Shown here: one piece after another, positions 33-5,162 of the stretch
How the letters are laid out: every line of letters starts with the position of its first letter
Numbering within the stretch: position 1 is the first letter of the stretch
IMG/VR virus record: IMGVR_UViG_2667527849_000003
Strand: one strand, 5' to 3'
From: a virus
Taxonomy: Duplodnaviria; Heunggongvirae; Uroviricota; Caudoviricetes
DNA length: 5,162 bases
Program-made: the position numbers and the translations under genes
The notes under the pieces: model-generated
What the model saw: the letters and a program-made list of their open reading frames with translations, nothing else
The model's database searches: none
What the model was told of the DNA's origin: nothing

Positions 33-2219
33 ATGGGTAAAGGCAGCAGTAAGGGGCATACCCCGCGCGAAGCGAAGGACAACCTGAAATCCACGCAGTT
101 GCTGAGTGTGATTGATGCCATCAGCGAAGGGCCGGTTGACGGTCCGGTGGATGGATTAAAAAGCGTGCTGCTGAACGGTACGCCGGTCCTGGACAGCGAG
201 GGGAAGACAAACTTTTCCGGTGTTACGGTGGTGTTCCGTGCAGGTGAGCAGGAGCAGACACCGCCGGAGGGTTTTGAATCCTCCGGCTCCGAGACGGTGC
301 TGGGTACGGAAGTGAAATATGACACGCCGATCACCCGGACCATCACGTCGGCAAACATTGACCGTCTGCGCTTTACCTTCGGTGTGCAGGCACTGGTGGA
401 AACCACCTCAAAGGGTGACCGGAATCCGTCGGAAGTCCGCCTGCTGGTTCAGATACAGCGTAACGGTGGCTGGGTGACGGAAAAAGACATCACCATTAAG
501 GGCAAAACCACTTCGCAGTATCTGGCCTCGGTGGTGGTGGGTAACCTGCCGCCGCGCCCGTTTAATATCCGGATGCGCAGAATGACGCCGGACAGCACCA
601 CAGACCAGCTGCAGAACAAAACGCTCTGGTCGTCATACACCGAAATCATCGATGTGAAACAGTGCTACCCGAACACGGCGCTGGTCGGCGTGCAGGTGGA
701 TTCAGAGCAGTTCGGTAACCAGCAGGTGAGTCGCAATTATCATCTTCGCGGGCGCATTCTGCAGGTGCCGTCGAACTATAACCCGCAGACGCGGCAATAC
801 AGCGGTATCTGGGACGGAACGTTTAAGCCAGCATACAGCAACAACATGGCCTGGTGTCTGTGGGACATGCTCACTCATCCGCGCTACGGCATGGGGAAAC
901 GTCTTGGTGCGGCAGATGTGGACAAATGGGCGCTGTATGTCATCGGCCAGTACTGCGACCAGTCAGTGACGGACGGATTTGGCGGCACGGAGCCGCGCAT
1001 CACCTGTAACTCTTACCTGACCACACAGCGTAAGGCGTGGGATGTTCTCAGTGATTTCTGCTCGGCGATGCGCTGTATGCCGGTATGGAACGGACAGATG
1101 CTGACGTTCGTGCAGGACCGACCGTCGGATAAGGTGTGGACCTATAACCGCAGTAATGTGGTGATGCCGGATGATGGTGCGCCGTTCCGCTACAGCTTCA
1201 GCGCCCTGAAGGACCGCCATAATGCCGTTGAGGTGAACTGGATTGACCCAGATAACGGCTGGGAGACGGCGACAGAGCTTGTGGAGGATACGCAGGCCAT
1301 TGCCCGTTACGGTCGTAATGTCACGAAGATGGATGCCTTTGGCTGTACCAGCCGGGGGCAGGCACACCGCGCCGGGCTGTGGCTGATTAAAACGGAACTG
1401 CTGGAAACGCAGACCGTGGACTTCAGCGTGGGCGCAGAAGGGCTTCGCCATGTACCGGGTGATGTCATTGAAATCTGCGATGATGATTATGCCGGTATCA
1501 GCACCGGTGGTCGCGTACTGGCGGTGAACAGCCAGACCCGGACGCTGACGCTCGACCGTGAAATCACGCTGCCATCCTCCGGCACCACGCTGATAAGCCT
1601 GGTTGACGGGCAGGGGAATCCGGTCAGCGTGGAGGTCCAGTCCGTCACCGACGGCGTGAAGGTAAAAGTGAGCCGTGTTCCTGACGGTGTTGCTGAATAC
1701 AGCGTGTGGGGGCTGAAGCTGCCGACGCTGCACCAGCGATTGTTCCGCTGCGTGAGTATCCGTGAGAACGACGACGGCACGTATGCCATCACCGCCGTGC
1801 AGCATGTGCCGGAAAAAGAGGCCATCGTGGATAACGGGGCACACTTTGACGGTGACCGGCGCGGCACGGTGAATGGTGTCACGCCGCCAGCGGTGCAGCA
1901 TCTGACCGCCGAAGTCACCGCAGACAGCGGGGAATATCAGGTGCTGGCGCGATGGGACACGCCGAAGGTGGTGAAGGGTGTGAGCTTCCTGCTTCGCCTG
2001 ACCGTGGCAGCGGACGACGGCAGTGAGCGGCTGGTCAGCACAGCCAGGACGACGGAAACCACATACCGCTTCAGGCAGCTGGCGCTGGGGAATTACAGTC
2101 TGACAGTCCGGGCGGTAAATGCCCGGGGGCAGCAGGGCGATCCGGCGTCGGTATCGTTCCGGATTGCGGAAATCCGGTCAGCGTGGAGGTTCAGTCCGTC
2201 ACCGACGGACTTAAGGTGA
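33..2219 (+). CDS. J: Lambda-type tail tip / host specificity protein J (gpJ), N-terminal fragment. J-homologous coding runs to about 2170, then the frame reads 49 nt out of frame through the duplication junction to a TGA at 2217..2219
   Basis: ATG at 33 with upstream purine-rich RBS. The translation begins [34 protein letters not shown], which I recognise as the N-terminus of phage lambda gpJ, and the ORF shows J-like sequence across ~712 codons. The tail [19 protein letters not shown] is the frame-shifted read of the second repeat copy. Strand + and frame 0 (33 mod 3). Confidence 0.85.
1617..2170 (+). repeat. Copy 1 of a 554-bp direct tandem duplication inside J
   Basis: aatccggtcagcgtggagg at 1617 recurs at 2171, and ggattgcgg at 2161..2169 recurs at 2715..2723. 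The constant offset of 554 was checked at the start, middle (cgtgagtatc at 1751 and 2305) and end. Encodes [18 protein letters not shown]...[10 protein letters not shown] in J frame. Confidence 0.9.
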
Positions 2220-2724
2220 AAGTGAACCGGGTTCCTGACGGCGTTGCAGAATACAGCGTGTGGGGGCTGAAGCTGCCGACGCTGCGCCAGCGTCTGTTCC
2301 GCTGCGTGAGTATCCGTGAGAACGACGACGGCACGTATGCCATCACCGCCGTGCAGCATGTGCCGGAAAAAGAAGCCATCGTGGATAACGGGGCGCGCTT
2401 TGACGGCGACCAGAGCGGCACGGTGAATGGTGTCACGCCGCCAGCGGTGCAGCACCTGACCGCCGAAGTCACCGCAGACAGTGGGGAATATCAGGTGCTG
2501 GCGCGATGGGACACGCCGAAGGTGGTGAAGGGTGTGAGCTTCCTGCTTCGCCTGACCGTGGCAGCGGACGACGGCAGTGAGCGGCTGGTCAGCACAGCCA
2601 GGACGACGGAAACCACATACCGCTTCAGGCAGCTGGCGCTGGGGAATTACAGTCTGACAGTCCGGGCGGTAAATGCCCGGGGGCAGCAGGGCGATCCGGC
2701 GTCGGTATCGTTCCGGATTGCGGC
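2171..2724 (+). repeat. Copy 2 of the 554-bp direct tandem duplication inside J (in frame +2 relative to copy 1)
   Basis: Same unit as 1617..2170 displaced by 554 bp. About 20 nucleotide substitutions against copy 1, all within the first ~312 bp (last difference near 2482); the remaining ~240 bp are identical. After 2723 the sequence continues caccggcagcgcctgtc (APAAPVTIE), the expected continuation of J. Confidence 0.9.
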
Positions 2725-4066
2725 ACCGGCAGCGCCTGTCACTATTGAACTGATACCGGGGTATTTTCAGATAACGGCGGTCCCGAAACTGGCTGTATAT
2801 GACCCGACGGTGCAGTTTGAGTTCTGGTTTTCGGAAAAGCGGATTGCGGATATCAGGCAGGTTGAAACCACAGCCCGCTATCTTGGTACGGCGCTGTACT
2901 GGATAGCCGCCAGTATCAATATCAGGCCGGGCCATGATTATTATTTTTACGTTCGCAGTGTGAACACCGTTGGCAAATCGGCATTTGTGGAGGCCATCGG
3001 TCGGGCGAGCGATGATGCAGAAGGTTATCTGAATTTTTATAAAGGGTTGATCAATAAAACGCATCTCGGCAAGGAGTTGTGGACGCAGATTGATAACGGT
3101 CAGCTTGCGCCGGACCTGACTGAAATCAGGACGTCCATTACGAATGTCAGCAATGAAATCACGCAAACCGTCAATAAAAAACTGGAAAATCAGAGTGCTG
3201 CAATCCAGCAGATACAGAAAGTTCAGGTTGATACAAATAATAACCTGAACAGCATGTGGGCTGTGAAGCTGCAACAGATGAAGGACGGACGCCTTTATAT
3301 TGCGGGTATCGGTGCCGGTATTGAGAATACGCCAGCAGGAATGCAGAGTCAGGTGCTGCTGGCGGCAGACAGGATTGCGATGATTAATCCTGCGAATGGC
3401 AACACAAAGCCGATGTTTGTTGGTCAGGGCGATCAGATATTCATGAACGACGTGTTCCTGAAATGCCTGACGGCTCCGACCATTACCAGCGGCGGTAATC
3501 CTCCGGCATTTTCCCTGACACCTGGCGGACGGCTGACGGCGAAAAATGCCGATATCAGCGGTAACGTGAACGCGAACTCCGGGACGCTCAACAACGTCAC
3601 GATTAATAAGAACTGTCGGGTTCTGGGAAAATTGTCCGCGAACCAGATTGAAGGCGATCTCGTTAAAACAGTGGGCAAACCTTTCCCACGGGACTCCCGG
3701 GCACCGGAGAGGTGGCCATCAGGGACCATTACCGTCAGGGTTTATGACGATCAGCCGTTTGATCGGCAAATTGTTATTCCCGCGGTGGCGTTTCGCGGTG
3801 CTAAACATGAGCGGAAGAATAACAATATTTATTCGTCATGCCGCCTGATAGTGAAGAAAAACGGTGCTGAAATTTATAACCGAACGACCCTGGATAATAC
3901 GCTGATATATACGGGTGTTATTGATATGCCTGCCGGTCACGGTCACATGACGCTGGAGTTTTCTGTATCGGCATGGCTGGTAAATGGCTGGTATCCCACA
4001 GCAAGTATCAGCGATTTGCTGGTTGTGGTGATGAAGAAAGCCACTGCAGGCATCACGATTAGCTGA
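2183..4066 (+). CDS. J: gpJ-like host specificity protein, C-terminal fragment: second copy of the duplicated segment, an FN3-like domain, and the C-terminal (receptor-binding) region. Possibly non-functional as a stand-alone gene
   Basis: ORF in frame +2 opening at GTG 2183, the first start codon in frame; there is no convincing RBS, so the true start is uncertain. Translation [19 protein letters not shown]... repeats the J segment and continues with J-like motifs ([47 protein letters not shown]) that I recall from lambda gpJ. Stop TGA at 4064..4066 is followed by a hairpin terminator. Confidence 0.75.
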
Positions 4067-4084
4067 ATTTTATAACCCAGATAC

Positions 4085-4109
4085 GGGCACCAGAAATGGT
4101 GCCTTTTTT
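4085..4109 (+). terminator. Rho-independent terminator downstream of J (tJ-like)
   Basis: Stem ggcacc (4086..4091), loop agaaat, stem ggtgcc (4098..4103), then TTTTTT (4104..4109), 19 nt after the J stop codon. Confidence 0.6.
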
Positions 4110-4122
4110 ATTGCAGAAAAGC

Positions 4123-4128
4123 GAGAGG
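4123..4128 (+). promoter_or_regulatory. Ribosome-binding site for lom (GAGAGG)
   Basis: gagagg lies 5 nt upstream of the ATG at 4134. Confidence 0.5.
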
Positions 4129-4133
4129 TAATT

Positions 4134-4205
4134 ATGCGTAAAGTTTGTGCAGCCATTTTGTCCGCAGCCATTTGTCTGGCCGTATCCGGTGCGCCTGCAT
4201 GGGCG
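4134..4205 (+). other. Predicted Sec signal peptide of Lom (24 aa, cleavage after A-W-A)
   Basis: Basic N-terminus (MRK), hydrophobic core (VCAAILSAAICLAV), and AxA-type cleavage motif AWA followed by SEHQ. Confidence 0.6.
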
Positions 4206-4733
4206 TCTGAACATCAGTCCACGCTGAGCGCCGGGTATCTTCAGACCCATACTGATATGCCAGGCAGCGATGACCTGAAGGGCATTAACGTGAAATACCG
4301 TTATGAGTTTACGGACACGCTGGGGCTGATTACGTCATTCAGTTATGCCAACGCTGAAGATGAGCAAAAAACGCATTACAGCGATACCCGCTGGCATGAG
4401 GATTCCGTGCGTAACCGCTGGTTCAGCGTGATGGCGGGGCCGTCTGTGCGCGTGAATGAATGGTTCAGCGCGTATGCGATGGCGGGTGTGGCTTACAGCC
4501 GTGTGTCGACTTTCTCCGGGGATTATCTTCGCGTAACTGACAACAAGGGGAAAACGCACGATGTGCTGACCGGAAGTGATGGCGGTCGCCACAGCAACAC
4601 GTCTCTGGCGTGGGGAGCTGGCGTGCAGTTTAACCCGACCGAATCCGTGGCCATTGACCTTGCTTATGAAGGTTCCGGCAGTGGTGACTGGCGCACTGAC
4701 GGTTTCATCGTGGGTGTCGGTTATAAATTCTGA
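4134..4733 (+). CDS. lom: Lom-family outer membrane protein (Ail/Lom/PagC/OmpX-type 8-stranded beta-barrel), phage-borne lysogenic-conversion 'moron' gene
   Basis: 199-aa ORF with ATG start and good RBS. N-terminal Sec-type signal peptide MRKVCAAILSAAICLAVSGAPAWA. C-terminus YEGSGSGDWRTDGFIVGVGYKF ends in a terminal Phe, and the alternating hydrophobic pattern is typical of outer-membrane beta-barrels. This C-terminal block matches lambda Lom as I recall it, and the position directly downstream of J matches lambda gene order. Confidence 0.9.
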   Translation: MRKVCAAILSAAICLAVSGAPAWASEHQSTLSAGYLQTHTDMPGSDDLKGINVKYRYEFTDTLGLITSFSYANAEDEQKTHYSDTRWHEDSVRNRWFSVMAGPSVRVNEWFSAYAMAGVAYSRVSTFSGDYLRVTDNKGKTHDVLTGSDGGRHSNTSLAWGAGVQFNPTESVAIDLAYEGSGSGDWRTDGFIVGVGYKF

Positions 4734-4760
4734 TTAGCCAGGTAACACAGTGTTATGACA

Positions 4761-4786
4761 GCCCGCCGGTTCAGGCGGGCTTTTTT
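4761..4786 (+). terminator. Rho-independent terminator downstream of lom
   Basis: Perfect 7-bp GC-rich stem gcccgcc (4761..4767), loop ggttca, stem ggcgggc (4774..4780), followed by TTTTTT (4781..4786), 28 nt after the lom stop. Confidence 0.75.
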
Positions 4787-4797
4787 GTGGGGTGAAT

Positions 4798-5124
4798 ATG
4801 GCAGTAAAGATTTCAGGTGTACTGAAAGATGGGGCGGGTAAACCTGTCGTAAATTGTGCGATTGAACTGCGGGCCAGAAGAACCAGTCCGACCGTTGTGG
4901 CACACGTTGTTGCCACTTGCGTGACGGACAATAACGGTGCTTATGTGATTGAGGCTGAGCCGGGGTATTACGAGGTTGCGCTTCACTGTAACGGCTGGCA
5001 GCCAACCCGTGTCGGGGATATTGATGTGGCACCGACTGATGCACCGGGGACACTGAACGCGTTTCTGAATGCACCAAAGGATGGTGATTTACGTCCGGAG
5101 GTGATGAAGTGTCAGCGCCAGTGA
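4798..5124 (+). CDS. stf: Side tail fibre protein (Stf-like) N-terminal domain; ORF of only 109 codons, probably a truncated remnant or disrupted gene
   Basis: ATG at 4798 with GGGG 5 nt upstream, preferred over the GTG at 4792 that the ORF track uses. Translation MAVKISGVLKDGAGKPVVNC...PGTLNAFL...RPE resembles the conserved N-terminus of lambda Stf as I recall it (MAVKISGVLKDG...), and lies downstream of lom as in lambda. Stop TGA at 5122..5124. Confidence 0.6.
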   Translation: MAVKISGVLKDGAGKPVVNCAIELRARRTSPTVVAHVVATCVTDNNGAYVIEAEPGYYEVALHCNGWQPTRVGDIDVAPTDAPGTLNAFLNAPKDGDLRPEVMKCQRQ

Positions 5125-5162
5125 TATAAGACGGTAATTCGCCATTTGGATTGTCCGCTCCA

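Follow-up and report, generated by a model that had tools for sequence, protein, structure and literature searches.

In the Shigella sonnei lineage, the side tail fibre gene (stf) of a lambdoid prophage has very probably been interrupted by transposition of a 2.13 kb insertion element of the IS21 family, which carries the genes istA and istB; the remaining 5′ portion of stf, stf′, is a pseudogene. The DNA analysed, referred to here as the window, is a stretch of 5,162 nucleotides and represents the whole of short-read contig CXFS01000212.1 of S. sonnei (assembly GCA_001254135.1). The features of the window are the following.

33..4066, + strand: gene J (tail tip/host specificity protein), split in the ORF list into two open reading frames, 33..2219 and 2183..4066
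4134..4733, + strand: lom, 199 amino acids, an outer-membrane beta-barrel of the Ail/Lom family (PF06316 on an identical gene; Ail/Lom annotation in the Escherichia coli CFSAN029787 chromosomal locus, L001)
4760..4791, + strand: terminator-like hairpin (4760..4781) and T-run in the gap between lom and stf, an 8-pair stem with 7 GC pairs followed by TTTTTGTGGG
4798..5109, + strand: stf′, the first 104 codons of a genuine stf of the lambda type (identity to CFSAN029787, PF08400, lambda orf-401)
5106..5109, + strand: GAAG, the last 4 bp of stf abutting the insertion sequence (IS) end and the presumed IS21 target site, by comparison with the GACG duplication of the EC958 copy
5110..5162, + strand: left end of an IS21-family element, nt 1-53, in the same orientation as stf (53/53 identity to the copy in locus L002, plasmid pCFSAN029787_01)
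5110..5120, + strand: IS21 terminal inverted repeat TGTCAGCGCCA (comparison with complete copies)
5110..5124, + strand: IS-encoded tail of the chimeric open reading frame, read as TGT CAG CGC CAG TGA (C-Q-R-Q-stop)

The short tail fibre open reading frame (4798..5124, + strand) is evident in the sequence and in the ORF list. It begins with ATG at 4798 and comprises 108 codons followed by TGA at 5122..5124; a GTG at 4792 is a possible alternative start that would add two codons. A first-pass annotation had recognized an Stf N-terminal motif at its beginning. This is borne out by a match to PF08400 (Prophage tail fibre N-terminal, phage_tail_N) of 126.4 bits against a cut-off of 26.6 (E = 9.8e-37) and by identity to lambda orf-401, the N-terminal part of Stf. 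Residues 1-104 align with profile positions 1-104 of 134, and the orf-401 alignment (52% identity, residues 1-104) also ends at residue 104. An intact relative of 470 amino acids covers profile positions 1-131. The same N-terminus is found by tblastn in 311 phage records, where it is annotated as belonging to side tail fibre or tail fibre proteins.

The gene had also been described as far shorter than lambda Stf, and the comparison stands. The intact relative has 470 amino acids and the two lambda pieces have 401 and 314, and the stf of the window is therefore genuinely truncated. A full-length Stf has several hundred residues, with a shaft and a C-terminal receptor-binding part, whereas 104 stf codons remain here before IS21. 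Accordingly, stf′ is a pseudogene fragment and no functional member of the Stf family. The presence of stop codons in all forward frames, which had been offered as a further argument for disruption, carries little weight. The three stops in question are indeed present (frame 2, TGA at 5102; frame 1, TGA at 5122; frame 3, TAA at 5127), but both off-frames are dense with stops throughout the gene, at intervals of a few tens of bases, and the frame-2 TGAs at 5102 and 5105 occur in the intact homologue as well. Only TGA 5122 and TAA 5127 fall within foreign DNA, and off-frame stops of this kind are not diagnostic.

The breakpoint was sought by megablast against 5426 complete E. coli genomes. Positions 4782..5109 of the window are 100% identical to an intact stf in nine of these genomes, and no alignment to stf in the set reaches past 5109-5112. 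The best intact relative is the stf gene of E. coli CFSAN029787 (470 codons, L001 8017..9429, WP_046880233.1), which is followed by a DUF4376 gene. Base by base, the window equals this gene up to ...GGTGATGAAG and diverges exactly from position 5110, where the intact gene reads CGCTTTGAGG... and the window TGTCAGCGCCAGTG...; the intact protein continues from this point with RFEEMV. The junction thus lies at 5109/5110, after stf nucleotide 312 (codon 104), and reads CCGGAGGTGATGAAG/TGTCAGCGCC with the slash at the joint. The first-pass annotation had suggested a disruption near 5100 in a degraded prophage and had proposed an alignment of 5090..5162 with intact stf genes; the comparison with the intact gene locates the breakpoint at 5109/5110 and the foreign DNA proves to be an IS21-family left end.

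The foreign DNA begins at 5110 (TGTCAGCGCC...). Its 53 bases, 5110..5162, match the start of the copy on pCFSAN029787_01 at 53/53 positions and that of a copy in E. coli EC958 (locus L003) at all but one. When positions 5105..5162 are taken as the query, 2944 matches are found in 2171 E. coli genomes, 1864 on plasmids versus 1080 on chromosomes. At the two loci examined in detail, istA and istB follow about 100 nt downstream of the match, and their PGAP product name is ‘IS21-like element IS21 family’. The name IS21 is used here on the basis of these product names together with the architecture of the element. The complete element is 2.13 kb in length, and in the pCFSAN029787_01 copy istA (390 amino acids) and istB (265 amino acids) are both intact. 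The EC958 copy measures 2131 bp; it lies within an Rpn gene, which it splits, and has a 4-bp duplication, GACG, on its two sides. The values of 2131 bp, 390 and 265 amino acids correspond to the published sizes of IS21.

The properties by which the family is recognized are found in these copies. IS21 elements have TGT.../...ACA terminal repeats; the left one is seen in the window and the right one is known from complete copies. The element ends are TGTCAGCGCCA and TGTCAACGCCA, with termini TGTCA...TGACA, and the EC958 copy starts with TGTCAGCGCCA and ends with TGGCGTTGACA, an inverted repeat matching at 10 of 11 positions. The genes istA (DDE transposase) and istB (AAA+ helper ATPase) are both present in the pCFSAN029787_01 and EC958 copies, outside the window. 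IstA displays the Pfam domains rve and Mu-transpos_C_2, and IstB the domain IstB_IS21 (302 bits). In the window istA would be expected to start at about 5211, past the contig end; in the finished chromosome of S. sonnei FORC_011 it starts 101 nt after the junction. Because the 53 bases at 5110..5162 match the start of an IS21 copy, the last four codons of the open reading frame (Cys-Gln-Arg-Gln) and its stop belong to the terminal inverted repeat of an IS21-family element.

The 4-bp target duplication characteristic of the element is represented by GACG at the EC958 copy. FORC_011 has neither the right end of the present copy nor the 433 bp of stf next to it. After a simple insertion GAAG would recur at the other end, with a predicted right junction GGCGTTGACA/GAAGCGCTTTGAGG. 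The pentanucleotide TGAAG immediately 5′ of the IS end was also considered as a part of the element or as a target preference, an idea prompted by several other copies whose alignments start at query base 1 or 2. Other flanks differ (GGAAG, TGACG) and the EC958 duplication is cleanly GACG; the likeness to TGAAG is therefore attributed to chance.

An identical 108-amino-acid open reading frame is found in six more draft contigs of the CX series and in the finished chromosome CP010829 (S. sonnei FORC_011), such that the junction is present in eight assemblies. All seven draft contigs stop within IS21, 53 nt into the element in the window and in four sister contigs (L005, L007, L009 and L010) and 31 nt into it in two others (L008 and L011). 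At the opposite end, the window, L005 and L007 all start 32 nt upstream of the start of J. Both contig ends are assembly repeat boundaries and not biological ends; the window terminates 53 nt into the IS because the assembler was unable to cross a multicopy repeat. The CX-series S. sonnei drafts are attributed to the Holt collection, for which read length averaged 59 bp (PMC7373316).

The junction was found in none of the 5426 complete E. coli genomes searched. An exact scan of species-representative genomes with a 32-nt junction sequence gave no match, a result that says little for a set where S. sonnei probably lacks a representative of its own. Protein records give another view of its distribution. 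The cluster formed at 90% identity around the 108-amino-acid protein contains S. sonnei proteins of 99, 102 and 104 residues labelled ‘partial’, which occur on 101, at least 1000 and 45 contigs, respectively; the 104-residue protein is labelled multispecies Shigella. Each of the three matches the window protein without a difference and stops at residue 104 or slightly earlier. Five short members that were aligned end at or before residue 108, and every short member among the 40 read of 208 (15 of the 40 are listed) is labelled partial. Cluster members from Shigella boydii and E. coli read on with RFEEMV. This distribution suggests that the junction is species-wide in S. sonnei.

The structure downstream of the junction was followed in one complete genome, that of S. 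sonnei FORC_011, a strain other than that of the window; the window's own strain is presumed to have the same arrangement. The features there are given in coordinates of locus L004.

10001-10312: stf′, the first 312 nt of stf
10313-10740: IS21 nt 1-428
10741-12004: a complete IS600, 1264 bp, in reverse orientation inside istA, with a GTT target duplication
12005-12677: continuation of IS21 to about nt 1098
12678-13854: a second IS600, without its first ~87 nt
13855 onward: stf from its nt 746 on, with 433 bp missing
14476-15099: the DUF4376 gene
15300-18749, opposite strand: four genes with ABC-3, ABC-3, ABC_tran and ZnuA domains

The DUF4376 gene is the last of the prophage remnant, and the four opposite-strand genes directly adjoin it. 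These we take to be the sitABCD metal-uptake operon. The IS21 copy of FORC_011 lacks its right part, ~1 kb, and abuts the second IS600, with AC as a 2-nt microhomology where they meet. The IS600 copies are mutually inverted and 99.8% identical. Assignment to IS600 (IS3 family) is based on a length of 1264 bp, TGAGGT...ACCTCA terminal repeats and the 3-bp duplication GTT/GTT, and a matching element in the pCFSAN029787_01 locus is named IS600 by PGAP. The 3′ part of stf lies 3.5 kb downstream of the junction in the same orientation, with only IS material between, and the match to CFSAN029787 resumes from stf nt 746 at 95%. The tail module upstream is also cut by IS fragments, and the FORC_011 prophage is a remnant riddled with IS copies. 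The first-pass annotation had pointed downstream, to an IS, the remainder of stf, a tfa gene or host DNA; the FORC_011 sequence displays IS21, two copies of IS600, the 3′ end of stf, the DUF4376 gene and the presumed sitABCD genes. It had also entertained a deletion junction. This is partly right, as 433 bp of stf are missing further on, but the deletion does not lie at 5109/5110.

The order of J, lom and stf (J 33..4066, lom 4134..4733, stf′ from 4798) is the same in lambda, phage ASU11 and CFSAN029787. In the gap between lom and stf, records of phage mEp460 carry an annotated terminator under the homologous stretch. The assembly of gene J is a separate matter. The gene has a 554-bp direct tandem duplication with copies at 1614-2167 and 2168-2721; when 1614-1913 is aligned with 2168-2467, at a spacing of 554, the two are ~93% identical over the 300 nt aligned. 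The split of J into two open reading frames arises because 554 is not a multiple of 3. In FORC_011 and CFSAN029787, J is intact (1159 amino acids, with GpJ Pfam domains) and the 554-bp duplication is absent. The J arrangement is different in each of the sister drafts L005, L007 and L008, and L005 has a 1919-amino-acid open reading frame. Two antisense open reading frames are present inside J, 963-1901 (- strand, 312 amino acids) and 2093-3274 (- strand, 393 amino acids), the latter spanning duplicated sequence; they are assumed to be by-products of the codon composition of J.

Between the window and FORC_011 there are 53 differences in 5.1 kb. The differences span 359-4781, with clusters at ~1574-1740, 2170-2482 and 4487-4781, the last of these comprising lom and the lom-stf spacer. 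Over 4782-5162, which holds stf′ and the IS end, there is no difference. S. sonnei is a clonal species, and 53 differences are too many for one, which suggests a consensus of paralogous copies. The J duplication is probably a short-read misassembly in which paralogous prophage J genes have been mixed. The stf/IS21 junction is unaffected by this assembly problem, and the finished genome confirms it.

The following sequence of events, whose order we infer from the FORC_011 structure, would account for the locus. The first event would be the entry of IS21 at the GAAG of stf, behind nucleotide 312 (codon 104), with the element oriented like stf itself. Read from the stf start codon, the frame would then extend four codons into the left inverted repeat of the element and terminate at the TGA inside the repeat. 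The predicted product is a 108-residue chimera whose N-terminal domain is incomplete at its end and which has neither shaft nor receptor-binding C-terminus. The later steps, given here in one possible order, would be the landing of one IS600 in istA, that of another in stf near nt 745, and a deletion from inside the second IS600 to inside IS21 that removed the right part of IS21, stf nt 313-745 and the left end of that IS600.

Transposition directly into stf has to be weighed against a rearrangement, in which an IS21 copy residing elsewhere in the prophage or chromosome had its left end brought against stf codon 104 by an IS21-adjacent deletion or inversion. The truncated IS600, the truncated IS21 and the 433-bp stf deletion in FORC_011 are later IS-associated changes that lend such a history some plausibility, and the target duplication of the present copy is unobservable with the right end absent there. 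The junction falls precisely where the IS inverted repeat begins, as either mechanism would predict. What counts against a rearrangement is the position of the stf 3′ part, 3.5 kb away in the same orientation and separated by IS sequence only, as in-situ insertion followed by local decay would leave it; a rearrangement is consequently judged improbable. That the junction is a chimera of short-read assembly, absent from the genome, could be suspected from the 554-bp J duplication and from the excess of differences from the finished genome. It is hardly credible when six other independent drafts and the finished chromosome of FORC_011 have the identical junction, and when S. sonnei partial proteins on >1000 contigs stop here.

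A natural, stand-alone tail fibre protein consisting of a short N-terminal domain is another reading, one that the first-pass annotation had itself raised. The frame is intact from its start codon, it was called as a gene and its PF08400 match is strong. However, its last four codons and stop match the IS21 terminal repeat exactly, the Pfam match breaks off at profile position 104 of 134, the same DNA continues into a 470-amino-acid protein in E. coli and the short cluster members read are uniformly labelled partial. The end of the frame in IS sequence and the interrupted domain in effect exclude a natural short protein, and its probability is taken as next to nil. It may also be asked whether the IS-capped 108-residue fragment has been retained since it is expressed and useful, for example by binding tail tips of related phages or the J protein of the remnant and so interfering with superinfecting lambdoid phages. 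This is considered very unlikely. The two observations that speak for a retained function are the apparent fixation of the fragment and its intact start, and fixation fits a neutral pseudogene in a clonal species equally well. An IS21 transposition into stf followed by local decay is the preferred explanation.

Comparison with lambda places the gene in a familiar setting. Lambda Stf occupies the same place after J and lom and belongs to the same N-terminal family, with 52% identity over the first 104 residues. In the lambda reference genome stf is also inactivated and is annotated as two open reading frames, orf-401 and orf-314; the split in lambda PaPa is a frameshift. Inactivation in S. sonnei differs in that an insertion sequence and a deletion are responsible and 104 codons precede the foreign DNA. 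The CFSAN029787 prophage has the same J-lom-stf-DUF4376 order with stf uninterrupted, whereas the FORC_011 gene carries IS21, two IS600 copies and the 433-bp deletion. With respect to the IS21 family, the window contains the first 53 nt only, and in FORC_011 an IS600 sits inside the copy, from which ~1 kb on the right is missing. Strain CFSAN029787 (region L001 8017-11825) carries a pINV-like plasmid with ospC4, and a frameshifted ipaH effector gene directly follows its tail fibre genes. The shared stf (100% over the first 312 nt), the pINV-like plasmid and ipaH point to a prophage lineage in common with S. sonnei.

S. sonnei 53G has 12 IS types, IS21 among them (PMC7373316). In this species IS insertion directly accounts for 50% of pseudogenes (Hawkey et al., 2020; PMC7373316), and among conserved S. 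sonnei pseudogenes 24/24 are IS-interrupted (PMC7373316). The disruption of stf is the same kind of event as the IS pseudogenization described in Shigella (PMC7373316), but in a prophage remnant and not in a metabolic gene. It is an IS-inactivated prophage pseudogene, and this kind of event is already known and well documented in Shigella.

Close to the end of a small contig, an abrupt loss of homology followed within a few codons by the stop of a short open reading frame is a typical signature of a repeat (IS) boundary in short-read assemblies. The stf/IS21 junction is a possible marker of the S. sonnei lineage. Its biological weight is small, as it represents one more IS-inactivated gene of a prophage remnant in a species with a documented IS expansion.
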